From a virus, in the IMG/VR virus record IMGVR_UViG_3300017774_004344, positions 27,650 to 91,649 of that record: DNA of 64,000 bases, one strand, 5' to 3'. The notes beneath the pieces were generated by a model, which did no database searches, was not told the DNA's origin, and saw nothing but the letters and a program-made list of their open reading frames with translations. This document shows, one piece after another, positions 9,025-45,207 of this stretch. Made by a program: the position numbers and the translations under genes. Numbering within the stretch: the first letter of the stretch is position 1; the number at the start of each line of letters is the position of its first letter.

Positions 9025-12000
9025 TCAGTGGTTCCTGAGTTCGTCGATAACCATCCCGATTCTCATTGCCACCAAAGAAGCAATTTCTTCTGAATCTTGA
9101 TTAGGTTGTTGATAAATTGTGATCGGGGCGTTAATGGTTGAGTGCCCAAACCCTTCGGAAGTATTTGCAGTGAAGGACGCAACTTTTGCAGAAGGCGGCA
9201 TCATCTTTCGCTCCCAAGCCATAGCTTCATTCTGGTTGGAGAAGAACGCAGGGTTGCCTTGCCCTAAGGCATAGGCTACGTGGACATGGTCCATATGGTT
9301 CGGAATTGTCCAGGGAACTTTAACACCGTTTTTGATGCTGAAGCCGAGAGGGGTATAGTAAAGCTCGGCCATACGTCTACCAGAAGTGGATGCCAACTGT
9401 TGAGCGTAAGCTAGCATCGAACTTGAAGAGCCTCCAACGTCAATTGCTCGCCCGGCATAGTGGTAGGAACCGGGTGCATGCTTCCCGCCTGTTGTCGATG
9501 TTATCACTAATCCCATGTTCTGTGCAAGAGAACTTGCAGCCCCCAAGCCCCCTGACATCATTCCAAGGGCTCCACCCATCATCCCACCAGCAGAAGAAGC
9601 AATCTGTGAAATTTTCTGCCCTAGACTTGCAAACATTGAAAGACTTCGGTTGTGATTGTTATTTATCTGGCCTTGAACTTTAGAGAACATTTCACTATTG
9701 TATTCTTGTGCCTTTGAGAAGGCAGACCCAAGGCGGTTTAGCTGGGACTGAGACTCAACTACTTGACCTGAAACTTTAAACAAACCTTCAGTGAACCGCT
9801 TCCCGTTGTCTGAGTAAATCTGGTTGTTCGTGTTTATCGTGTTCGTGAGCCGACCGAATCCCTCTCTCAGGGTGTCCATGAAAGCACCCATGCCGAGACC
9901 ACCTGCCGCTGGAATGACTGTCTCACTACTGTTTGCGATTACAAGACTAGATCCGGAGGGTTTATTTCTCATTTCTTGAGAAATTGCATCTCCGAGACCA
10001 CCCTTATACCGGACCCCGATAGAGCCTAAAGGGGAGTTCGTTGCAAGCGGAAAGGGTGTTACTTTTCTCTGCTTCGTTCCCCCCGTCCCGTAGTCAGAAG
10101 TTTTTCCACCTTGTCCTGGAGCAGCTGCGATATTTCCCGGAATTTTGCTTTCTATTATACGGCCAATAGCGGTAAATAAATTACCGATTGCACCCACAAT
10201 AATTCCCCCAAACCCCATTACACTCTGCACGACTCCCTTTAGAACTTCACCTATACCCCAAAAAATCTTCTTCACCCCTTGAACTATTCTGTCTTGGTCA
10301 GCAGTGAACATTCCAACCAGAATGTCCCAAATCCCCGTGAAAAAGTTAGTGAGACCCCTCATGATGTTTGCTAATCCTTTCAGGAAGTGCCCAGCAGCAG
10401 CTACAGCCCAGTTGGTGCTTTCTGTTAATCTACCACCAGTGTTCGTTAACCAGTCTGCTAACGCTCTCAAGGGTCTTTCAAAGACAACAAAGGCTGCTAC
10501 CAGTGCAGCAGTTATTGTAGTCACACCTAAAACTGTCGCCAGTAGACCTCCCGCACCAGCCGCAGCACCACCGGCAGCAGCCGCAGTCCCTGCAGAACCC
10601 GCAACAGACCCCGAAACTGCCTTAAAAATTGCATTCGCAATTAATGGAGTGGCAGAGGATATCACGGCACTTATGAGAGGGGGACCGAAGATGGCTCCAA
10701 TGAAGGTTAAAACCAAGGGTCTGATCGGCTCATAAGTTAATACGCTGAAGATAAACTCAAAAAGCTTCCCCACTAAGGTTGATATTCCGTCTCCTATACC
10801 TTTCTTTGCCGCGTCTAGAGCACCAGGCCCCGTGAATGCTGACATGAAACCTTTCATAAACTCACTTTGAGCCTTCCCCATTACACTATTGGGGTTTTTT
10901 ATCATGTTTGCAAGATCCCCCATGATTTGACCTACTGTCTTAAAAATTTCTCCTACTATTCTGCCAAACCCTTCAGCTTGGGTCATTTTCTTAGACGGGT
11001 CTTTTGACCTTATATTAGAGGCTACATTGCTTAGTGTTTCCCCCAAGGGACCGAACACAGTGTTAGTGACTTGTATAGCTGCCAATGCGAAGTCAGTCCA
11101 AACGGGGCCTATAGAATTTAAAGCGTCAGTTAAACTCCTCACCAAGTTAGAAAAAGCATAGCTGAACGCCTTGAAGGGGGTGCTAATTTCGTCTGCTCCG
11201 TCTTTCGTCAGTTGATCTCTTGTGAGTTGAGCTTGTTCAATGTTCGCTCTAAGTTCCTTAGCTCTTTGTGAGTCCGCTGAGACATTTTCCAGTTCCAAGC
11301 GGTACCTATCTATGCGTCCATTTTGTATTTTTATGATTGCATCATTCGCCTTCTTCTGTTCTTCTTTGGTGAATGTAACAGACATGCCTAAAATGCCTAC
11401 CGAAGGGTTAAAAAGTGTATCCTGAAGACCTTGTAAAGAACCTGTTAAACTCTGAGCCATAGCTTTAGTTGACTCACTTGACATTGATTTATTGAAAGCA
11501 TCCATCATGGCTTTCATCCTAACCGCGTCTGTGGCGGTCATCATTTTAGCTGAACGCATATTCCGACCTGCAAAACCTGCTTCTTCAAGATTCTTCATCA
11601 ACATAATGTTGTCAGAGAAGAAGTCAATAGTGGTATCGATTTTTCCTCGGGTGACTAGACCCTCAATACCTGCTGCTACACGGAAACCCGCAGAACCTGT
11701 TCCCTGGGAGAAAAGAGCCGCTTTCTCTAGAAAGGCTCCATAGTTTTTGGCTGAAGCTTCCAATTTTTTCGGGTCGATATCCCTCATTTTGGTTCCCTTA
11801 GCCACCCCTTCTGCAGCCAACATGAGGGGTCCCATCGTATCCAAAGTGTATCTCTGAAGTTCAACAACTTTAGCCGTAGGTGCTGAGGACTGCCGTATCA
11901 TTTCCGACACAACTTGGTCGTACTTTTTATACATTTTCTGAGAGTCTTTGAAAGACCCTTCATAACCCTTGAGCCTAAAGGACCCTTCAATACCCGAAGC

Positions 12001-12603
12001 AGCTTTCACGTCGGCAAGTTCATCCTCCATTGACTCTTTGAAAAGCCTGGCTATTGAACCTGCCCCCTTTTGGGCGGTCCCTAGCACGGTTCTCATGCCC
12101 CTTTCAAATCCACTCGCCATCGCATCCCCGAACTTACCCAGTGCGTCGGCCTTCAAGAGAGTGGTCATTAAGTCATCGGCGTGACGATTAGCTCTTCCTG
12201 CTGATTCTCCTATGCCTTCAACTTCGCTGCGGGTTCTGGCCGCCGCTCTAGCAGCTTCTTCCAACGAGTCCGTCAGACCATCTAATCCCTTGACTCCCTC
12301 CCCAATTTGGGACACAGTGTCTCTAACTTTTCCTGCAGCTGAAGCTGCTTCGTTCAAATTCTTTGTGACTCCGTTCATGGGTTTTGAGATTAACCCTACT
12401 CTGAAGTTCAGATCATCAAAACTTTTACTTAAACTCTTCAGCTCCGAGTTGGCAGACTTAAATCCATCTCGTAAAGAAGTAGCGACGTTATTGTTCTTAA
12501 GGGGGTTGCTTAACTTGGCAATCTCCTTATTTAGGTCTTTTAACTTTTTGGTAATCTGATCGTCAAACTTACCGATCAGTGTAAAAGTTTTATTATCCAC
12601 CAT
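9025..12603 (-). CDS. Tail tape measure protein with C-terminal M15-like zinc peptidase domain
   Basis: 1192 aa, helical and Ala/Gly-rich with hydrophobic segments; C-terminal H..GSYHYAGRAID...HMDHVH. Confidence 0.8.
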   Translation of the reverse strand: MVDNKTFTLIGKFDDQITKKLKDLNKEIAKLSNPLKNNNVATSLRDGFKSANSELKSLSKSFDDLNFRVGLISKPMNGVTKNLNEAASAAGKVRDTVSQIGEGVKGLDGLTDSLEEAARAAARTRSEVEGIGESAGRANRHADDLMTTLLKADALGKFGDAMASGFERGMRTVLGTAQKGAGSIARLFKESMEDELADVKAASGIEGSFRLKGYEGSFKDSQKMYKKYDQVVSEMIRQSSAPTAKVVELQRYTLDTMGPLMLAAEGVAKGTKMRDIDPKKLEASAKNYGAFLEKAALFSQGTGSAGFRVAAGIEGLVTRGKIDTTIDFFSDNIMLMKNLEEAGFAGRNMRSAKMMTATDAVRMKAMMDAFNKSMSSESTKAMAQSLTGSLQGLQDTLFNPSVGILGMSVTFTKEEQKKANDAIIKIQNGRIDRYRLELENVSADSQRAKELRANIEQAQLTRDQLTKDGADEISTPFKAFSYAFSNLVRSLTDALNSIGPVWTDFALAAIQVTNTVFGPLGETLSNVASNIRSKDPSKKMTQAEGFGRIVGEIFKTVGQIMGDLANMIKNPNSVMGKAQSEFMKGFMSAFTGPGALDAAKKGIGDGISTLVGKLFEFIFSVLTYEPIRPLVLTFIGAIFGPPLISAVISSATPLIANAIFKAVSGSVAGSAGTAAAAGGAAAGAGGLLATVLGVTTITAALVAAFVVFERPLRALADWLTNTGGRLTESTNWAVAAAGHFLKGLANIMRGLTNFFTGIWDILVGMFTADQDRIVQGVKKIFWGIGEVLKGVVQSVMGFGGIIVGAIGNLFTAIGRIIESKIPGNIAAAPGQGGKTSDYGTGGTKQRKVTPFPLATNSPLGSIGVRYKGGLGDAISQEMRNKPSGSSLVIANSSETVIPAAGGLGMGAFMDTLREGFGRLTNTINTNNQIYSDNGKRFTEGLFKVSGQVVESQSQLNRLGSAFSKAQEYNSEMFSKVQGQINNNHNRSLSMFASLGQKISQIASSAGGMMGGALGMMSGGLGAASSLAQNMGLVITSTTGGKHAPGSYHYAGRAIDVGGSSSSMLAYAQQLASTSGRRMAELYYTPLGFSIKNGVKVPWTIPNHMDHVHVAYALGQGNPAFFSNQNEAMAWERKMMPPSAKVASFTANTSEGFGHSTINAPITIYQQPNQDSEEIASLVAMRIGMVIDELRNH

Positions 12604-36696: not shown

Positions 36697-36749
36697 TTGC
36701 TAAAGAGCTTAAGACTGTGTGCAAAGGCACTACACAGTTTTACCCTAGG

Positions 36750-36911
36750 TCAGAGGTATCTCGCTGCTTCTTTCGCGTCTGAACTCACACCGCTCTTACC
36801 AAGTTTCATGGCCGCATTCAACACTTTGTCTGCTTGTTTTATTTTATCCGGGTTACCTCGAACTTTTTTGTAGAGAGCCATTAGCTCTAAATACTTTTGA
36901 TCGTTTTTCAT
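36750..36911 (-). CDS. Small basic protein, 53 aa (MKNDQKYLELMALYKKVRG...AARYL), not in the ORF track
   Basis: TAATG coupling to the kinase stop; translated by hand. Confidence 0.7.
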   Translation of the reverse strand: MKNDQKYLELMALYKKVRGNPDKIKQADKVLNAAMKLGKSGVSSDAKEAARYL

Positions 36912-38191
36912 TAATTTACGCCTTCGTAGAGTAGGGGGATAATCCGCATTGCATCTTTTTTGCTTACTTTGGACCAGGCACCTTTGTTGTAGGAGCTGAT
37001 GGGCTGGTTTAACTCATGAACCACAAGCTCAGCTATCTCATCCTTGGATAATCCTAGCTTTGCAAGCTCTGCGTATACTTTAGTGCGATTACGAACAACC
37101 TTTTCGAGGTTGGTATTGGTGCCACCCTTAAGAAGGTCTTTTATGGGTTGGGTATAAGCTTTATACTTCCTTCCTTTTCGGTCCCCGGAAAAATCATCTA
37201 AAATTCGTTTTAGTACAACACCTTGAGGAAGCAATTTTCGATCTGCAAGTATGCCAATGGCCTCTGATAGAGCTGCTCTAGGGTCGTCCTGAGAAAGCCC
37301 GAAATCAATGAAGCGAGCTTTCCCCTTATTATCTACAATGACATTTTCTATGTGAGAGTCATTATGGGCAACTCCGCTTTCGTGAAGTCTCCTACGAAGA
37401 AGAAAATAAGCGTCTCCAAGAGTTGTACTTCCGACCTTCGTCCCGTATGCGGGATCATTGTCATCAAAATCTCCTACGGCTTTACCCGGAACCCGTGTCA
37501 TTGCAATTCTTCCTTCGTAGAATTCTATATCCCCTTCTCGCGCCATAACGGTGTATTTGTTGACCTCCGCTGAAACAAACTTCGGAGAAATGTCTTTACC
37601 GTTTAACTTTTCTAGAATTTTAACCTCACTTTCACTCACTTCTCCTCTCTTCACTACAAGAGCCGGTGGTGGTTTAGAGAGCATAACGTTTCCGTAGCTC
37701 CCTGAGCCCAAACCTTTGGCACCAGATTCGTAAGACTGAGACCAGTCATAATCTTTGCCGAATTTGTCGGTAGGAATGAAATCATGGTCAAACTCTCGAG
37801 CGTTCTGTCGATCGTAGAGTACCAAGCGGTCGGCCTCAGTATGCTTTTCCCGAGCATCCATAAGAGCCATTTTAAGTCGTTCGACCCGATCAATCTCCTC
37901 ATCTGTCATAGAGGGTTGGCTGCTCAACTCAGCAAGTTGGCGTTCTGCCTCCCTCTTTAAGACGGGAAAGTCATTGCCAACTTCTCTTTGAGTTAGTGGG
38001 CCCAACCCTAAGGCGTCAATCAGCCTTTGTACAGTCAAACTCGGTTTTTTATCCTCGTTAACCAAACGGAGGAAGATGTCGCCCGCTTCCTCAACCTGCT
38101 TTGATACTTTCGGAGACAAAGTGGCTCTGCATTTAACGTTGCGGTTGATGCAAGTGCCACCGCAGCTTTTTCCTTTCGAGCAGCGCCTCAT
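36911..38191 (-). CDS. Ser/Thr protein-kinase-fold protein with N-terminal Cys4 motif
   Basis: GSGSYG loop, VVKR lysine, HNDSHIEN catalytic loop, DFG. Confidence 0.85.
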   Translation of the reverse strand: MRRCSKGKSCGGTCINRNVKCRATLSPKVSKQVEEAGDIFLRLVNEDKKPSLTVQRLIDALGLGPLTQREVGNDFPVLKREAERQLAELSSQPSMTDEEIDRVERLKMALMDAREKHTEADRLVLYDRQNAREFDHDFIPTDKFGKDYDWSQSYESGAKGLGSGSYGNVMLSKPPPALVVKRGEVSESEVKILEKLNGKDISPKFVSAEVNKYTVMAREGDIEFYEGRIAMTRVPGKAVGDFDDNDPAYGTKVGSTTLGDAYFLLRRRLHESGVAHNDSHIENVIVDNKGKARFIDFGLSQDDPRAALSEAIGILADRKLLPQGVVLKRILDDFSGDRKGRKYKAYTQPIKDLLKGGTNTNLEKVVRNRTKVYAELAKLGLSKDEIAELVVHELNQPISSYNKGAWSKVSKKDAMRIIPLLYEGVN

Positions 38192-38202
38192 TGTGTCTCC
38201 TC

Positions 38203-38709
38203 TCAGGCTTTGCCTTTACGACCGTTACGCGTAAAGTCAAACTCACCTTCTCCCATAGACTCACTGAAGTCCTGAAGAAGCTCTTGTAAACGGTTAATGC
38301 GAGAGTTTACTGAATCCAGTTGCTCTGTGTAAGAAGTTCCCATACCGGCAGCAATGTTGTGGTCGTCTGTTTTCTTTCGAGCAAGGTCAACTGTGGCCAT
38401 TTTTGCATCGATTTCTTCACGCTCTTTTACAAGTTTCTTGACAGATGCCATTTGATTCTGCAACTGTTGAAAAGCTCCTCTCTGACGGGAAAGTTTCATT
38501 GCTTGGTTGAGTGAGTCAATCTTAGAAGAGATGGCCTCGTGCCTTTCTCCCATGGCTTCATACTCACCGAAACTCGGCCTTAACGTGGAAACAGTTTCGG
38601 GTTCCATAACAGTATTCCTGTAATAATCCGTGGGCATGTGAGTGAACCCTTCGATTTGCAACTCTTGTTCTGAGAAAGTATCTAAGTCTAAGGGTCTTGG
38701 GTTATACAT
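38203..38709 (-). CDS. Coiled-coil hypothetical protein (putative head-internal/scaffold)
   Basis: Heptad-rich; several F/Y-x-E motifs; GGGTAAGT upstream. Confidence 0.7.
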   Translation of the reverse strand: MYNPRPLDLDTFSEQELQIEGFTHMPTDYYRNTVMEPETVSTLRPSFGEYEAMGERHEAISSKIDSLNQAMKLSRQRGAFQQLQNQMASVKKLVKEREEIDAKMATVDLARKKTDDHNIAAGMGTSYTEQLDSVNSRINRLQELLQDFSESMGEGEFDFTRNGRKGKA

Positions 38710-38785
38710 TTGCCAAGTAGGGGAGTATGTCTGTTAATTGTAACTTACCCTTTTCTTCGTATTAGCGCCTACGTTGTAAGTAGCT

Positions 38786-39205
38786 CTAGCGGGGGGAACC
38801 GGTGGGCACTGTAGGCGGAGCCGCAGAAGCAGGCTTCTTAGGCCCAACTTTCTTCTCACCTGCTACAGATCCCCAAGCCACCATTACCGGTTTTCCACCT
38901 TTCATAGCCCATCCGAACTTTTTACCACCGGCACTTACTGCCTTGTTATTCTCAAAAGCCGAGCCTTCTTTCTTAGCTTGATCTTTTAGGGATCTTTCCT
39001 GGTCAGTGTCGTCTCCTACTTGCTGTTCTCCGTTAGCATTAACGCGGCGGCATACCCCGAAGACCATCTTTTGATTTGGTGGACAGGGATCACCAGGGTT
39101 GAGAGATAAGGAAGGGGCAGGGTCTGCAAAGTTCCAATCTACCACAATATAATCCACTCCTTCTCGTAAGTGATCTACCGAGGGGATGTTGAAGCTTCCT
39201 AGCAT
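38786..39205 (-). CDS. Hypothetical protein
   Basis: MLGSF N-terminus; GGGTAAAC upstream. Confidence 0.7.
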   Translation of the reverse strand: MLGSFNIPSVDHLREGVDYIVVDWNFADPAPSLSLNPGDPCPPNQKMVFGVCRRVNANGEQQVGDDTDQERSLKDQAKKEGSAFENNKAVSAGGKKFGWAMKGGKPVMVAWGSVAGEKKVGPKKPASAAPPTVPTGSPR

Positions 39206-39301
39206 GTTCAGAGTGTGGTATTAATGAAGTTTACCCTATTGCTCTCTAAACTGTCCTCAGTTACTTTAGTTAATGTTTTCCTTATGACTATTTAGTTATA
39301 C

Positions 39302-39652
39302 TTACCATTTTTCAAGATTGGCCCAATAGCTAGCGGAAGACTTACCCTTCGCAATATTAGCCGCATGTCTTGCCTTGAAAGCCTCTCTCCTGGCTTTATA
39401 AGCCTCTGATTCTCCTTCTTTTTTCGGCGACCCTTTCACACCTTGCTGCCCGAACCGAATCATCTTTCCGCCTTTTGGGGCTCCAGGATAACACGCCTTA
39501 ACTATATGTGATTTCGTAGGGTGACTTGGAGTGGCGTGAGGGTCATTGCAATCTAGTGAATTTTTGTCAACTTTCTCGACGTACTTTTCTATTGCCGCTT
39601 CCAGGAAAGAATCATAAGCAGATTGTAAAAAAGATCCCCACATTTCAATCAA
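39302..39652 (-). CDS. Conserved basic phage protein
   Basis: HPTKSH.V.A...K.IRFGQQG...R..FKARH...SA.YWA...W pattern recognised from other phage hypotheticals. Confidence 0.7.
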   Translation of the reverse strand: MIEMWGSFLQSAYDSFLEAAIEKYVEKVDKNSLDCNDPHATPSHPTKSHIVKACYPGAPKGGKMIRFGQQGVKGSPKKEGESEAYKARREAFKARHAANIAKGKSSASYWANLEKW

Positions 39653-40023
39653 TCTCTGTATTGTAAAGCGTCGGCGATTGCAGTCATTCCATGCTCAGCC
39701 TCGGCCAACTTCGCAGCCATCCAAGGGTCCAAGTTTGAGTAGGGGCCGATCATTTCAAGAATGGTTTCAACGTTGTCCTGCATCGATCGAAGTTGGGTCA
39801 TAGCCATGCCCCCGTTCGGCTCAAAGTCCTCGTTGTCTTGATCCTCGTTCTCGTAATCTGAATCGTAATCGTCCTCGTCGTCTTCACCCATGAAAAAAGA
39901 GTCAGGGTTCCTGCCCGGTTCTTTCTCGAATGCGGGAGCAATCCCCATGAAATTGCTCGGGTTTTCGACCCCATATTTGTAAGCTTTGTAAGCTTCCGGA
40001 GAAAAAGATCCCAAGTTACTCAT
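39649..40023 (-). CDS. Acidic hypothetical protein
   Basis: LGSFSPEAY N-terminus; MAMTQL...LDPWMAAKL; GGGTAAAA upstream. Confidence 0.7.
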   Translation of the reverse strand: MSNLGSFSPEAYKAYKYGVENPSNFMGIAPAFEKEPGRNPDSFFMGEDDEDDYDSDYENEDQDNEDFEPNGGMAMTQLRSMQDNVETILEMIGPYSNLDPWMAAKLAEAEHGMTAIADALQYRD

Positions 40024-40039
40024 TTTTCTAAATTCTTAA

Positions 40040-40552
40040 CTAATGTGTTTTACCCTTGGCTTTCTTCCACAAGTCTGCGTCGGCTTTCCGTGCTCCTCCT
40101 ACTCCCGTGATGAAACTTGACACTCTTGCCTGAGCCCATTGCTGCGGTGCAACACCAGGACGGTGTCCAGACCTCCAGGCTGCCATCCCCCTCTTAAATA
40201 CCTGTCTCAGTATAGGTAAAGGAATTCCCGACTTTTTTGACTTATTCTTAAGTGCTGTGTCTGAAGGCGAAGATTCAGTAAAGTTGCGCTCAAACGCTTC
40301 CGTGGCAGGAGACTTAGGAATTTTCTTCTCTCGGTTTCGAAAACTCTTATCCGACTCCCAGTCTTTATACAATTCCTTCGCTGAGGTTTTCTTGCTGCTG
40401 GCCTTCTCCATAGTCTCTTCAGCTTCACGTTTTGCAATTCCTTGCTCTCGTTCAGTTAGACCTTTTTTGTAGGAGGCTGGAAGTGCCTTTTCAATGTAAT
40501 CTAGATCGAAACCCAAACCTTCCAGGCGATTCCAGTCGTAGCTCTCACTCAC
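40040..40552 (-). CDS. DUF5824-like basic protein
   Basis: KSKKSGIP..IL.QV..RG.AAW.SGHRPG...QQWA.ARV.SF. Confidence 0.65.
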   Translation of the reverse strand: MSESYDWNRLEGLGFDLDYIEKALPASYKKGLTEREQGIAKREAEETMEKASSKKTSAKELYKDWESDKSFRNREKKIPKSPATEAFERNFTESSPSDTALKNKSKKSGIPLPILRQVFKRGMAAWRSGHRPGVAPQQWAQARVSSFITGVGGARKADADLWKKAKGKTH

Positions 40553-40916
40553 CTTCTTTCTCTCTATGTTTGTAGAACTGCATCGACAATTCTTCCACTT
40601 TGTCCACCAACCTTAAGTGGTCTGACTTGAGTGTGTACTTTTCCGGTAGTTCCGCTCTCATATCATTAAGAGACCTTTCTACATTTTTGATATGGTTTAA
40701 TACGTTCTCATTTTGAAGAGTATTAGCAGAAATCAAAGTATTGATTCTCTCGTCGTTTTCCTTGATGAGTTTTTCGATTTTAGTGTCGGCACCTGTTCTT
40801 AAATCGTCGACTATTTTGCTGTTTTTACCTTGGATGGCAAACGTTCCACCAATTCCTGCTATAGCAGCAGTGAGAATCCAACCGGCAATGGCTAAGGGTA
40901 TCTCTATCATTCCCAT
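40545..40916 (-). CDS. Single-TM coiled-coil membrane protein (lysis-related candidate)
   Basis: N-terminal hydrophobic helix followed by a coiled coil. Confidence 0.55.
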   Translation of the reverse strand: MGMIEIPLAIAGWILTAAIAGIGGTFAIQGKNSKIVDDLRTGADTKIEKLIKENDERINTLISANTLQNENVLNHIKNVERSLNDMRAELPEKYTLKSDHLRLVDKVEELSMQFYKHREKEGE

Positions 40917-40920
40917 TTTT

Positions 40921-41895
40921 TCACTCCGGTAATCCTGACTGGCCTACTTTCAGGCGGTCTTTAACCGTCTGAGGTAGGCCCGATTCCCATCCATTCTTCT
41001 TAGCAATTGCTATGATTTCGGTCATTACTTCCCGAGGGTTTGAAGCTCTACCAGCGGAAGACCACGCGGCTGAAACATCCTTTGGACTTGCGATCGGGAA
41101 AGACATACCCGGACCAGCTAATTGACCGACAATATCTCCTTTTTTCATAGACTTCCTCTTTTCTGAGGGCCATTCACGAAAGTCTGGAGAAGGTAGGCCA
41201 GACTCGCCTTTCTCCATGCGATCTTTCACAGTCTGGGGTAAACCCGATCCCCAATCGTATTTCTTTGAAATCCTTAAAATTTCAGCCATTATTTTGCGAG
41301 GGTTTGCTGCCCGTCCAACAGAGGACCACGCGGCTGAAACATCCTCTGGACTTGCGATCGGGAAAGACATACCCGGACCAGCGAATTCTCCCTTAGCCTC
41401 CCCAGTTTGAAGCTTTTTGCGCTTTTCAGTCGTCCATTCACGAAATTCTGTGTCCGCTTTCGCTTTTGCTTTGCAGGAAGAGCAAGAACACTTTCCAGGG
41501 CTTTTGCAACTTTTAGAACAACCCTCACCGAAAGGTTGTGGCATTGACATCAGCTCCGTATCGTCCGCGAAGTTGTACTCGCTTCTCTTGATTTCACGGA
41601 AAGCTTCCATTCGGGCCGTCTTACGACCGAAAATCTCTTTCATGGCAGCTTGACCGTCTGTGTGAGCATCACGATCGCGATTCACCAAGTTTTCCCTTCT
41701 TTGGCGGCTTGCCTTATTGGCGTCCAAGATAGCTTCATTGTGAAAAGACATGTTACCATCCTTATCAGTGCGCCACTTTTCCCCCGAGCGGTTCATCTCC
41801 TGGAGTTTGCCGGTAGAGATGGCGGTAGCTGCATTAAGAGAACCGCCAACTCCAGGTAAGCTTACAGTCGAAAAATCTAAATTAGCTCCGTACAT
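40921..41895 (-). CDS. Protein with Cys-rich linker and two tandem 88-aa domains (DUF6582-like)
   Basis: FREW...AGPGMSFPIASP.DVSAAWSS.GRA.NPR occurs twice. Confidence 0.75.
   Translation of the reverse strand: MYGANLDFSTVSLPGVGGSLNAATAISTGKLQEMNRSGEKWRTDKDGNMSFHNEAILDANKASRQRRENLVNRDRDAHTDGQAAMKEIFGRKTARMEAFREIKRSEYNFADDTELMSMPQPFGEGCSKSCKSPGKCSCSSCKAKAKADTEFREWTTEKRKKLQTGEAKGEFAGPGMSFPIASPEDVSAAWSSVGRAANPRKIMAEILRISKKYDWGSGLPQTVKDRMEKGESGLPSPDFREWPSEKRKSMKKGDIVGQLAGPGMSFPIASPKDVSAAWSSAGRASNPREVMTEIIAIAKKNGWESGLPQTVKDRLKVGQSGLPE
40924..41448. repeat. 264-bp-period coding direct repeat, two copies
   Basis: gaccacgcggctgaaacatcctYtggacttgcgatcgggaaagacatacccggaccagc at 41060 and 41324. Confidence 0.9.
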
Positions 41896-41913
41896 AAAGA
41901 CACGACGTTGATC

Positions 41914-42279
41914 CTAAACTTTACCCTCTTGATCTTCGTCCCCATTTTTGTTCTTAATACTTCCTCTTACCGAGTTAAGTATCTCGGAAACATTTTGACG
42001 GGAGGAAGGAACGAGAAGGGCTAGGATCGTTGTCAGAGCCAGCTTTCCGGTCTCGTTAAAGGAATTCGTGGCATTGTTGCAAATGAGAGTGACCTGAGTC
42101 GAGTCTTTATCTAAGACAGCAGAAGATTGGCAGGACCAAGTTTGGTAACCTACCGTAATAAACTGCATTAGGAAAATTCCAGCCAATGCGCGGATGAGAA
42201 AGGCTCTTTCATTGAACGCTGCCACTGTTACCTCAATCTTCTTCAAGATCGTAATTAAGTTCTTTGGACTCGGATTCAA
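41914..42279 (-). CDS. Two-TM membrane protein (holin-like candidate)
   Basis: Two hydrophobic segments and a charged C-terminus. Confidence 0.45.
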   Translation of the reverse strand: MNPSPKNLITILKKIEVTVAAFNERAFLIRALAGIFLMQFITVGYQTWSCQSSAVLDKDSTQVTLICNNATNSFNETGKLALTTILALLVPSSRQNVSEILNSVRGSIKNKNGDEDQEGKV

Positions 42280-42769
42280 TCTCGGCGATCAAGGCGTCAA
42301 TTTCTTCGTCTGTGATCTCCGGCTCGTCCGCCTCTTCATCTTCTTCTTCTTCACTTAGAAGTTCTTCAATCAACCTTTCAAGTTCTTCATCGGAAAGTTC
42401 GTCCTCGTCCTCCTTCTCTTCGTAATAGGAAAGGTCATCGTCGCCTTCGTCGGCTAGAAGCTGTTCGACAAGTTCTTCGAGTTCTTCTTCGGAGAGATCA
42501 TCAAGTTCGTCGTACTCGCTTTCTTCAGCAAGTTCTTCTAAGCCAGGTACGAGAACTTGGTTCGGTTGAAAGTCCTTGTTTGTACCGTCATTCGCTTTCC
42601 ACAACCCCGTGTGTTGGAGCCAAGGGGAAGTGTTTAGGATCAAGTTTGTAGGTAGGCCAGTGTACTGGTCTGTTTCTTGGTCTTCCGGCTCTAGGATTTG
42701 TGCTGCGTACGCTGCTCTGAAGGCTTCAATCGAGTCAGGGTCAAAGTCACCGTTGATTCTGTTGGACAT
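42233..42769 (-). CDS. Highly acidic protein (scaffold-like or DNA mimic)
   Basis: Three L[ST][DE]EE[LI]..L[IV] acidic repeats; N-terminal GDFDPDSIEAF. Confidence 0.7.
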   Translation of the reverse strand: MSNRINGDFDPDSIEAFRAAYAAQILEPEDQETDQYTGLPTNLILNTSPWLQHTGLWKANDGTNKDFQPNQVLVPGLEELAEESEYDELDDLSEEELEELVEQLLADEGDDDLSYYEEKEDEDELSDEELERLIEELLSEEEEDEEADEPEITDEEIDALIAEIESESKELNYDLEED

Positions 42770-42810
42770 TGTATGGTTTGTAGACTGCTAAACTTTACCC
42801 TTAGAACGGG

Positions 42811-43209
42811 TCAGATCGACTCATACTTACCAGAGATATCCTGAAGCATCTTCCCGTTACCTTGGAGGTCCTCGCGGTACTTTTTGATTTCCGTATGCAC
42901 CTCGGCGCGAAACTTTCCTTCGTCTATGAGCTTTTTCCTGCGGTCTTCCTTTGTTTCTTCTTTCTTCGCAACTATTTCCCCGTCCTCAGAAACTTCAAAC
43001 TCCTTAGAGAGCTTTCCAGGGGCAGGTTGTTGAGGGTTCACTTCTACTGTCAAGCGGTCAAGTAGATTGTCAAAGCGGTCCCGAAGCGAGCGCCGGCAAA
43101 TCGCGTCGGCAGCGATGTCCATCGGGCCGCAGGGTATGCGGTATTGCCCCTCAATTTTATCCTTAGTCTTTGACATAGTTAAGCTCCAGTGCGGGGCTTT
43201 TCCGCCCAT
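42811..43209 (-). CDS. Hypothetical protein
   Basis: Operon position; probable start MSKTK. Confidence 0.65.
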   Translation of the reverse strand: MGGKAPHWSLTMSKTKDKIEGQYRIPCGPMDIAADAICRRSLRDRFDNLLDRLTVEVNPQQPAPGKLSKEFEVSEDGEIVAKKEETKEDRRKKLIDEGKFRAEVHTEIKKYREDLQGNGKMLQDISGKYESI

Positions 43210-43514
43210 TCTTTTTCATAGTCGGCATAGTGCCGGCCCTTTTGTTTTTCCTTGAGTGGTTTTGCCGAGGTTTTATTTGACTCTCTCATACCAAGAATTA
43301 AGGTGTCTCGCATTGCTCGGAGTTGCTCACGGGGTATTGAGCAAAAGTTGCTGTCTCGGTAGGAACGAAACTTGTGTGCAACGTCGTGAGGGTCGTCGCA
43401 CTGCAGGAGGACTGACCACACCCCATAGGCTTGGGGGTGGCTCAGTGTGCCGGGTGGTAGACCTTGCTCCAAGGTGAAGCGGTCGGGGCGGGGGAAGCGG
43501 GTGTCTCTCCTCAT
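43179..43514 (-). CDS. Hypothetical protein downstream of the HNH nuclease
   Basis: Starts 4 nt after the HNH protein stop. Confidence 0.65.
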   Translation of the reverse strand: MRRDTRFPRPDRFTLEQGLPPGTLSHPQAYGVWSVLLQCDDPHDVAHKFRSYRDSNFCSIPREQLRAMRDTLILGMRESNKTSAKPLKEKQKGRHYADYEKEWAEKPRTGA

Positions 43515-43518
43515 AGTT

Positions 43519-45144
43519 TCACTCTAGCATAACATTTAGATTGGGCACGAAGTTATTCAGCAATTCCGCCAATTTTTCACCGTATTCTGAGCTCTTTTGT
43601 GTCTGAAGTTTAAGTCTCGCGTTGTTGTCTCCTCTCACAGACTGCGCTTCACTGTCGGTTAAAATACGAGCTTTTCTTAAATCATCTAAGCCTTCCTTGA
43701 GAGCTTCTTTCTTTGTGGGGTCGATAGCAGCCAACGCTACCAAAACCGCTGTGCTCGGTTTCACATTGGTTCCAGGTAATTTTGAAACTCCGTTGTTCAT
43801 AAAAGCGGGTTTGCCGCCGTTTCTGTGGTCTAAGTCTCTATCCTGGTGTTGCCAGCCTACCTCGGCCGCTCTCACTAGGTATCGAACTTTATCACCGTAA
43901 GCCTGAATCAACCCTTTCACTCCTGCAATTCTTTCTTCGGGTGTCTGAGACGATAAAGCCTTGGCTATATCTGTGGGAGCAGACCCCTTCTTACCTTTGG
44001 CCGCTTCAGCTTTGCTTGCAGCGGGGTTATATACCTCGCGCTCGTAAGCCTCTCTGCCCATTTTTTTGAACTCTTGAAGACGTTCTTTCCACTCCACGAA
44101 ATTGTCGCCGGAGCCCGCTTTTTGGTTGTTCGGTTGGGATGCCGACCAAAGCAGGTTGCGAGGTTGGTCACCGCCACCACCCTTTGCGAGTGCGTGGGCA
44201 AATGCAACCATGTGCTCTGGCTCTGCATTTCGAATATCTATAGGTTTTCCTGTGTAAGGGTCTAGTCCTCCCTGTTCCATCCAGCGCTTAACCAAGAAAA
44301 CCCCTCTCTCTCGTGTAGGTTTGTCTGAAAAGGTAGGATTTCCGTCATTATCGTTTCCGGCGAACATTACCGACTCTCCTGTAACAGCCCCCGCCTTGTC
44401 TATAGCGGACCGCACTTTCGAGGGAAGCATGTAGTAAGCAGTCGTCGCAACTTCATCCGAGACCTTATTCACAAGGTAGTTTGAGCTTATTAGGTCCCCC
44501 ATACCCCCCCTTTGAGATGGGTCGAATTTTCCGTTTGAACCGAAGGAATTCTGATAAGCTTGTTCTAACTGTTCTAATTTCCCTGGCTTCAAGACAGCCT
44601 CTATATCTTCGAAGCTCATCACACGGGGAGCGTTCCTGTCTTGGCCGGGGGTTAAAGTGGTGCTAATGAGAAGCTTAGCTACCGAGTCTAACTCTGTCTC
44701 GGAAGTTTTGCCCGAATCCACTAGTTTCTTAAAGAGGTCAAACGCTTTTAGTTGGGAGTTTTCTGTACTTTTTATCTTTGAGACAACCTCTTCTGATTGT
44801 TCTTCTGAAATTCTATCTTCGCTCACTTGCTCAGATAGGACTTTGGACAGTCTTGTTAATGCAATTCCGAGTGGAGCAGGCAAAGTTGATATGCAATCAT
44901 CATTCTTGTGAATACACGTTGCAGAACAAGGCTTGCCTGAGGAACACTTTTTAGCTTTCCCTGCAGACTGAGAAGCTTTTTCCTTCGCCTTTTGTATCTC
45001 TAGACTTGTGTGTTTTCCCCTCAGGGAAGAGCCACCTGTAGCCTGCTTTTCTCGTCTTGCTTCATCCTGGAGAGCTTCCAGGACTCCTTCCCCTACTTTT
45101 TCAAGCCTTGAGGAGAAATTTTGCCAGAGAAATTTACTGCTCAC
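43519..45144 (-). CDS. HNH-domain protein with N-proximal Cys4 motif
   Basis: QGGLDPYTGKPI...EPEHMVA...GGGD.P.NLLW...PNNQK; CSSGKPCSATCIHKNDDC. Confidence 0.75.
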   Translation of the reverse strand: MSSKFLWQNFSSRLEKVGEGVLEALQDEARREKQATGGSSLRGKHTSLEIQKAKEKASQSAGKAKKCSSGKPCSATCIHKNDDCISTLPAPLGIALTRLSKVLSEQVSEDRISEEQSEEVVSKIKSTENSQLKAFDLFKKLVDSGKTSETELDSVAKLLISTTLTPGQDRNAPRVMSFEDIEAVLKPGKLEQLEQAYQNSFGSNGKFDPSQRGGMGDLISSNYLVNKVSDEVATTAYYMLPSKVRSAIDKAGAVTGESVMFAGNDNDGNPTFSDKPTRERGVFLVKRWMEQGGLDPYTGKPIDIRNAEPEHMVAFAHALAKGGGGDQPRNLLWSASQPNNQKAGSGDNFVEWKERLQEFKKMGREAYEREVYNPAASKAEAAKGKKGSAPTDIAKALSSQTPEERIAGVKGLIQAYGDKVRYLVRAAEVGWQHQDRDLDHRNGGKPAFMNNGVSKLPGTNVKPSTAVLVALAAIDPTKKEALKEGLDDLRKARILTDSEAQSVRGDNNARLKLQTQKSSEYGEKLAELLNNFVPNLNVMLE

Positions 45145-45183
45145 GTTCCAGCATAAGACACGATATGTAGTATTTTACCCTAC

Positions 45184-45207
45184 AAAATAGGGGCCGAAGC
45201 CCCCTTA
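45184..45207 (-). terminator. Intrinsic terminator after phoH
   Basis: ggggc-ttcg-gcccc stem-loop followed by tatttt on the minus strand. Confidence 0.7.

Follow-up and report, generated by a model that had tools for sequence, protein, structure and literature searches.

The stretch of DNA analyzed here (the window; 64,000 bases, corresponding to bases 27650–91649 of the 91,649-base contig IMGVR_UViG_3300017774_004344) comes from a tailed freshwater cyanophage. The contig carries PhoH, two large-terminase paralogues, and baseplate and tail-fibre genes, with psbA just upstream of the window, and its nearest named relative, judged by protein similarity only, is Synechococcus phage S-CBWM1. Between the terminase/PhoH genes and the gene for a 1589-residue baseplate/fibre protein lies a run of minus-strand genes bounded by two whose products share a four-cysteine (Cys4) leader, referred to here as leader A. 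One gene, at window positions 36911–38191 (-), encodes a 426-residue Bud32/RIO-like protein kinase with a C-terminal helical extension; the other, at 43519–45144 (-), encodes a 541-residue HNH-like protein that belongs to a conserved family of cyanomyovirus virion proteins. Each is coupled to a small open reading frame (ORF). The ATG of a 53-residue ORF (36750–36911 (-)), a member of a conserved small-protein family, overlaps the kinase stop codon as TAATG, and a 111-residue ORF (43179–43514 (-)), to which no fold could be assigned, starts 4 nt after the stop codon of the 541-residue protein. Ten small and medium-sized ORFs occupy the interval between the leader genes (38203–43209 (-)). An earlier note on this DNA, made from its letters alone, had described the common leader, the two junctions, and the bracketing of a small-protein cluster, and all three agree with the ORF coordinates, the junction sequences, and the motif search that follows.

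The Cys4 core spans residues 67–84 of the 541-residue protein (C67, C73, C77, and C84; 44893–44946 (-)) and residues 4–21 of the kinase (38129–38182 (-)), where it forms part of a short leader that begins M-R-R-C. The pattern C..GK.C...C[IVL].{5}C has exactly these two matches in the six-frame translation of the window, compared with none in 300 mononucleotide shuffles of the same sequence (mean 0.0, maximum 0), and the two cores have 10 of their 18 residues in common. A third copy lies on the same contig 10 kb upstream of the window, at the N terminus of a 261-residue kinase. The start of the 541-residue ORF is backed by the conserved N termini of its homologues, and C67, G70, C73, A75, C77, I78, and C84 are invariant in 26 of them.

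The motif is the core of a module of 40–60 residues. A profile was built from 12 leader segments and searched against 1.84 billion proteins, yielding 525 representative proteins at E ≤ 1e-3 and 27 at E ≤ 1e-10; the best 150 of the 525 were looked at, and the counts and consensus sequences given here refer to these. All 150 contain the four cysteines and the invariant glycine positions, the first cysteine falls within 40 residues of the start in 117, and two or more copies of the module are present in 10. Ahead of the first cysteine, the consensus reads P-[TS]-x-S-[EQ]-[IV]-R-x-A...A-V-G-G-x-R-K-R, with a mean of 2.6 Lys or Arg among the five residues that precede it; the core reads C-x-K-G-K-[SN]-C-[SG]-A-[TA]-C-I-x5-C and is followed by [LV]-V-[ED]-L-P and an amphipathic stretch. 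In the 541-residue protein, the extended leader (approximately residues 45–108; 44821–45012 (-)) comprises, according to alignments and model, an N-terminal helix, a basic patch, the Cys4 knuckle, and a second helix, whereas short forms such as that of the window kinase lack the N-terminal helix. When residues 40–110 were modelled alone (AlphaFold2, 35 sequences), a hairpin holding the middle cysteines (32–39) and a helix (51–68) were obtained, both with a predicted local distance difference test score (pLDDT) of 81–85; in prediction, that is, the module folds on its own. The knuckle probably binds zinc.

The leader segments alone gave chance-level matches only against Pfam (E ≤ 10) and NCBIfam (E ≤ 1), neither of which holds a model that covers the module, and comparison of the module-only model with solved structures (VIA-align) found nothing similar (best Z 2.8, root-mean-square deviation (rmsd) 11.7, 63 residues aligned). 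A degenerate DNA pattern for the motif had five matches in IMG/VR viral contigs, all of them chance matches in short ORFs, and no relatives were found by this route. Literature searches returned no description of the Cys4 leader, which is a weak sign of its being unpublished, as motifs are not searchable as text.

The earlier note had also held that unrelated enzyme domains, a kinase and an HNH nuclease, stand behind the common leader. For the kinase, the expected loops can be read from the sequence (GSGSYG at residues 162–167, HNDSHIEN at 276–283, and DFG at 296–298). Its profile matches are significant by E-value (Pfam Pkinase, E = 4.9e-5, with further matches to APH and ABC1; NCBIfam Bud32, E = 1.5e-6), although the scores lie below the gathering cut-offs (23.3 vs 31.7 bits for Pkinase, 19.9 vs 23.2 for APH, and 27.8 vs 125 for Bud32), and the gene is syntenic with that of the RIO-like kinase gp113 of S-CBWM1.

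For the 541-residue protein, 50 homologues were found, the sole named one being S-CBWM1 gp174, annotated as "virion structural protein" (42–45% identity). Across 26 homologues, residues E308, E310, H311, D326, Q327, P328, N330, L331, W333, N339, N340, and K342 do not vary; they fall in a core at approximately residues 295–345 (44110–44262 (-)). The catalytic His at the end of the first strand, the Asn, and the second Asn/His on the strand and helix that follow, which define an HNH site, are present. In the AlphaFold2 model of the protein (mean pLDDT 79), strands at 308–311 and 331–334 are followed by a helix at 336–344, with a pLDDT of 84–96 across the block, so that a beta-beta-alpha topology is predicted around these residues. 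Two family members exceed Pfam cut-offs for HNH domains, P0090 with PF01844 (23.1 bits, cut-off 21.4) and P0145 with HNH_4 (23.9 bits, cut-off 22). For the window protein itself, there is no Pfam match, no PDB sequence match with the family profile, and no Foldseek match in the PDB at E ≤ 0.001, and for this reason we label it HNH-like only and regard it as a putative nuclease. The unrelated domains described in the earlier note thus stand for the kinase loops and for the HNH residues and predicted topology, with the nuclease label softened for want of a curated match of the window protein.

Further comparisons place the HNH-like protein among virion proteins of cyanophages. Its fold matches in BFVD are S-CBWM1 gp174 (E = 9e-39), an S-TIM5 virion protein (1e-9), and S-CBWM1 gp106 (1e-4), and the fold group comprises gp174 and gp106 of S-CBWM1, the S-TIM5 "virion structural protein and packaging", and S-CRM01 g51. 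S-CREM2 gp12, which is a virion protein with a Cas9-like annotation, can be aligned with it as well, and the window protein itself gives a weak Cas9 match in NCBIfam (E = 0.014). A VIA-align search with the whole model matched only the C-terminal helical bundle (best Z 6.2, rmsd 3.2, 79 residues aligned) and was uninformative.

The earlier note had suggested profiling the motif and listing the domains fused to it, and the outcome is that the module is portable and stands at the N terminus in front of many enzyme domains that are unrelated to one another. Pfam was run on 131 of the best 150 proteins and identified 13 kinase-like proteins, 10 ADP-ribosyltransferases (ARTs), 3 LRAT proteins, 2 HNH proteins, 2 alpha/beta-hydrolases or lipases, 1 DnaJ protein, and 1 cytidylyltransferase; the other 99 matched no family. 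In the 117 single-copy proteins, the parts behind the module fall into 18 BLAST components when these are built from the sequence 75 residues beyond the first cysteine, the largest of which (53 proteins) may still be over-merged; when the shared linker regions were included, a single component of 74 took in both kinases and ARTs. There is good support for the modular architecture, and the leader-A proteins are diverse cargo that share only an N-terminal element, as in a cargo system of the type known from phage T4. Distant matches such as P0119 and P0124 are large and multi-copy, and P0088 and P0119 carry a J-domain or lipase plus a hydrophobic helix alongside the knuckle. As a separate observation, the leaders of P0057 (an ART) and P0240 (a kinase) are 74% identical over 62 residues; both proteins list a longest contig of 14,213 bases and may therefore lie in one genome, and leaders within one genome may be homogenized by recombination.

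A second leader is found on the same contig. Leader B has the consensus [YL]DFTRC-x-R-x2-G-x2-YG-x2-G-x-CRKG and lies near the N terminus of four proteins encoded upstream of the window (L003 6058–6588, 6616–7839, 10882–11547, and 12708–14135, all (-)), which are a 475-residue kinase, a cytidylyltransferase/NMNAT-like enzyme, and two proteins without assigned function. A search with the leader-B region gave 36 proteins, with Pfam families that include ART, kinase, cytidylyltransferase, DUF6496, and others. The window kinase (leader A) and the 475-residue kinase (leader B) are paralogues (32% identity over 284 residues, E = 3e-42), yet the kinase of the metagenome locus L018, which bears leader A, is nearer to the leader-B kinase (41.5%) than to the window kinase (30.9%). 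The cytidylyltransferase carries leader B on this contig and in S-CBWM1 gp39 and leader A in P0163, and ARTs occur with either leader. Leaders have been exchanged between homologous cargo, and the alternation of the same cargo types between two unrelated leaders is more readily explained by an address than by a functional domain specific to the cargo. Among the leader genes of this contig are also genes for a leaderless ART (PF03496; L003 5492–5974 (-)), a C39-like peptidase (9789–10508 (-)), and a DUF6496 protein (12137–12439 (-)), a repertoire that resembles that of polyvalent proteins.

The link to the virion comes from literature and annotation for the cultured relative S-CBWM1 rather than from the present phage. 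A scan of the whole S-CBWM1 genome places leader A on gp106, gp113, gp161, gp162, and gp174 and leader B on gp39 and gp165. In gp113 (70464–71324 of MG450654.1) and gp161 (117887–118702), the leader and a Met lie in frame upstream of the annotated starts, and the deposited starts are therefore probably wrong and the proteins shortened. The GenBank products are APH-like (gp162), ChoK-like (gp161), RIO-like (gp113), NMNAT (gp39), and "virion structural protein" (gp174). In the available parts of the literature, APH, ChoK, and Rio2 kinases and an NMNAT-like protein are reported from S-CBWM1 virions (PMC10665884), and NMNAT is stated to be in them by a second source (PMC9602691). By product name, four of the five S-CBWM1 leader-A carriers match proteins reported from virions in this literature or in the GenBank record, and the leaderless S-CBWM1 kinase gp173 is not among the virion proteins named.

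The same kinds of protein recur more widely. Kinases, NMNAT-like enzymes, and the HNH-like protein appear in the virion proteomes or annotations of S-CBWM1, S-CRM01, S-TIM5, S-CREM2, and S-SCSM1, as far as the available portions of the sources go (PMC10665884, PMC9602691), and the window kinase and HNH-like protein are homologues of these. In S-CREM2, the order kinase, small ORF, HNH-like gene is found as gp14-gp13-gp12. Unlike the present analysis, this literature, in the parts available, explains the enzymes as virion-carried regulators and mentions no shared leader.

Taken with the portability of the module, the match of four of five S-CBWM1 carriers to virion proteins, which is the strongest support although an indirect one, makes the addressing of enzymes to the virion the best reading of leader A. 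We propose, with a probability of roughly 0.55, that S-CBWM1-like cyanophages use the Cys4 leader as an address or handle by which unrelated enzymes are built into the virion for delivery with the DNA. An S-CBWM1-like lineage from fresh and estuarine waters places at the N terminus of otherwise unrelated enzymes a leader in which an N-terminal helix, when present, and a basic patch (K/R-K-R) precede the C-x2-G-K-x-C-x3-C-I-x5-C knuckle, with an L-P turn and a further helix behind it. In the proposal, the leader would bring the enzymes into the virion, and they would enter the next host together with the DNA. By analogy with the capsid-targeting sequence (CTS) of T4, the docking site would most likely be an internal head component or one close to the portal. 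The cargo encoded in the window would be the Bud32/RIO-like kinase and the HNH-like putative nuclease, whose family is a virion protein in several cyanomyoviruses; the two-cysteine leader B of the same contig serves the same kinds of cargo; and, as partners, the 53-residue family goes with one kinase subfamily and the 111-residue family with the HNH-like gene at this locus. The earlier note had likewise supposed that the Cys4 module addresses enzymes to the capsid. Its portability and the virion matches of its carriers speak for this, whereas the role of the leader itself as the addressing determinant is something that we infer.

Several observations weigh against the proposal, beginning with this inferred tie between leader and packaging. 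In the model of the whole 541-residue protein, the leader region has a pLDDT below 50. The kinases detected in S-CBWM1 virions are assigned to gp numbers by product name only, no virion report was found for the leader-bearing gp106 and gp165, and in the accessible text the authors of the proteome caution that abundant non-structural proteins may co-purify with virions (PMC10665884). The 553-residue protein of S-TIM5, the kinase of S-CRM01, and gp12 and gp14 of S-CREM2 are reported or annotated as virion-associated and show, by eye, no such Cys cluster; the presence of such T4-like cyanophage homologues in virions indicates that the leader is not generally required. Bacterial genomes, moreover, contain the bare Cys core at no fewer than 120 loci, for the most part in small proteins that are secreted, but also in SNase-type nucleases behind signal peptides; the knuckle is therefore a general mini-domain rather than a phage-specific address.

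The last two points would be expected if the Cys4 module were a general metal- or disulfide-stabilized knuckle unrelated to packaging, with a role in binding nucleic acid or a host target or in oligomerization, and if virion association were set by other parts of the proteins. The basic patch before the core and the occurrence of two to three internal copies (strict pattern) in some large proteins, in place of one N-terminal copy, fit such a knuckle as well. We nevertheless consider this explanation unlikely: the phage form scores 48–65 bits with the leader profile and the bacterial ORFs 0–32 bits, a difference due to the conserved flanks of the phage form; the module is N-terminal in most profile matches; and neither the alternation of the same cargo between two unrelated leaders nor the mapping of four of five S-CBWM1 carriers to reported virion proteins is readily accommodated by it. 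What is specific to the phages is the knuckle with its flanks at the N terminus of cargo.

The authors' caveat on CsCl preparations would also suit a different explanation, in which the carriers are abundant late proteins that co-purify with particles without being packaged, and the leader sends them to another site in the infected cell, such as a membrane or the nucleoid. The joining of knuckle and hydrophobic helix in some distant matches is in keeping with such a destination, but the recurrence of kinases, NMNAT-like enzymes, and HNH-like proteins in the virions of the five independent cyanophages named above leads us to regard it as very improbable.

In the bacterial loci L030–L147 (for example, L047, L059, and L044), small and apparently secreted proteins are widespread that end in an eight-cysteine motif, CC-K-x-C-x2-GK-x-CG-[DN]-[AT]-CI-x5-C-[HR]-x3-GCAC, which was matched by no Pfam model.

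The small ORFs coupled to the leader genes are conserved and, to judge from gene neighbourhoods and alignments, are cargo-specific partners. The 53-residue ORF has two paralogues on the contig, each after a kinase, and an alignable homologue after the L018 kinase; the 261-residue leader kinase upstream of the window is likewise followed by a coupled ORF, of 52 residues. Homologues of a 57-residue paralogue adjoin kinases in S-CRM01, S-H34, S-B68, S-N03, and related phages, with a weak match in S-CREM2 (gp13, E = 0.4), where the ORF is flanked by gp14, the virion kinase, and gp12, the HNH-like protein. Even in T4-like cyanophages with leaderless kinases, the family is found behind one kinase subfamily. 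In S-CBWM1, gp114 follows gp113 with a 4-nt overlap. Of 12 close metagenome loci, 11 have the 111-residue ORF behind the HNH-like gene, its start codon overlapping or abutting the stop codon, and the S-CBWM1 homologue of this ORF, gp107, follows gp106, again with a 4-nt overlap. No homologue lies next to S-CBWM1 gp174, and in the metagenome relative L016 (147–1978), the HNH-like gene is followed directly by a homologue of a 132-residue ORF and the 111-residue gene is absent. The 111-residue protein has no match in Pfam, PHROG, or NCBIfam; an ESM Atlas look-up remained at chance level (best score 0.87, 51 of 256 features shared); and co-folding with the HNH-like protein gave scores of 0.13 and 0.00 against a mark of 0.32, which speaks neither for nor against binding.

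The earlier note had read these ORFs as immunity genes of a polymorphic-toxin system, in which the leader would traffic toxic enzymes and the coupled ORFs, as cognate immunity proteins, would neutralize these in lysogens or in the cell that produces them. Such a layout is present here, with enzymatic C termini that vary behind a constant N-terminal module; each downstream ORF family is tied to one cargo type and translationally coupled to it, and a nuclease made late in infection may need restraint. The distribution of the ORFs does not bear the immunity claim out: the 53-residue family stands beside leaderless kinases across distant phages, S-CBWM1 gp161, gp162, and gp174 carry the leader and have no small coupled neighbour, and L016 lacks the 111-residue gene. 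The weakly matching S-CREM2 gp13 is listed in the virion proteome table in the available part of the source (PMC10665884), no MuF or other known trafficking domain was found with Pfam, and the parts of the lineage that were examined, in which integrase was not searched for, show no sign of lysogeny. We therefore hold a toxin–immunity system to be improbable. Classical immunity genes are a less likely identity for the partners than subunits, chaperones, or temporary inhibitors, and they may act as inhibitors.

Set against systems that are already known, the addressing of virion cargo by leader A is closest in logic to the T4 CTS, which occurs on internal proteins I–III (IPI–III) and Alt. That sequence is about ten residues long and is removed by the prohead protease. 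The likeness lies in a shared N-terminal element on diverse cargo that includes host-modifying enzymes; the leader described here differs in its 40–60 residues with four invariant cysteines and a helix, and T4-like cyanophage homologues of the same cargo have no Cys4 leader. Homology is not expected, because the present leader is much longer and cysteine-based. According to the available text, the diverse and fast-evolving internal proteins of T4 share only this short N-terminal sequence for entry into the head and delivery with the DNA (PMC3012670).

The MuF polymorphic toxins of temperate phages, as far as the available portion of their description goes, likewise join a constant, phage-particle-associated N-terminal module to variable C-terminal enzymatic or toxic domains (PMC5576092). 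No Pfam family, and thus no MuF domain, was found on the N-terminal parts of the leader proteins; the downstream ORFs are unlike immunity genes, and the phages look lytic. Polyvalent proteins, in the accessible part of the paper that describes them, hold 2–15 domains per polypeptide, and the proposal is that they enter together with the invading DNA (PMC5512222). They share with the leader cargo this proposed delivery and the same enzymes, namely protein kinases, ARTs, nucleotidyltransferases, and peptidases, but the enzymes described here are encoded one per gene and each bears its own leader, and only distant matches such as P0119 and P0124 are large and multi-copy. The window proteins carry one cargo domain each, in place of two to fifteen effector domains, and the accessible text of PMC5512222 contains no occurrence of the word "cysteine" and mentions no cysteine motif. 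By sequence, the leader system is not a member of the MuF or polyvalent systems, nor of the CTS system, the last being set apart by leader length and cysteine basis in place of a sequence comparison.

A more far-reaching version of the address reading can be put forward tentatively, at somewhat less than even odds: both leaders would be interchangeable, lineage-wide tags of a programmable delivery system in which any tagged enzyme is loaded and injected, the zinc knuckle docks to a head-internal or portal component, and the small ORFs are co-loaded silencers that act until delivery.

We know of no account so far of how kinases, NMNAT-like, and nuclease-like proteins get into cyanophage particles. 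If leader A is an address, a leader recognizable from sequence would let the injected protein sets of uncultured phages be predicted; in the S-CBWM1-like lineage, the predicted set would comprise kinases, ARTs, nucleases, lipases, and many domains without assignment. It would also serve to correct gene starts, as in the two S-CBWM1 kinases apparently annotated without their leaders, and would provide a handle with which cyanophage particles could be loaded with foreign proteins. Leaders A and B also add two undescribed small domains for family databases.

Outside the coding sequences, a G+C-rich hairpin with a T-run lies at window positions 45175–45204 (-), followed directly by TAGGGTAA, approximately 30 nt upstream of the gene for the 541-residue protein. 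A similar combination of CTAGGGTAA and hairpin follows the 53-residue ORF (36700–36748). The earlier note had placed both leader units downstream of a GGGTAA motif; in a loose check, CTAGGGTAA with at most one mismatch gave 22 matches compared with 14.9 expected and is not clearly enriched.

The ten-ORF cluster between the leader genes encodes a DUF5824 protein, two very acidic proteins, and a 324-residue repeat protein. It is syntenic, with homologues in the same order in the metagenome loci L009–L019, most completely in L018, and its counterpart in S-CBWM1 is gp108–gp112. The 324-residue protein (40921–41895 (-)) contains an internal duplication, in that residues ~150–235 and 238–324 match one stretch in relatives, and also has a Cys-rich patch. 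The DUF5824 protein has 170 residues (40040–40552 (-)) and combines the DUF5824 match (E = 2e-19) with the C-terminal end of PHROG 3041, annotated as "cytidyltransferase"; virion-associated enzymes may have a further module in DUF5824.

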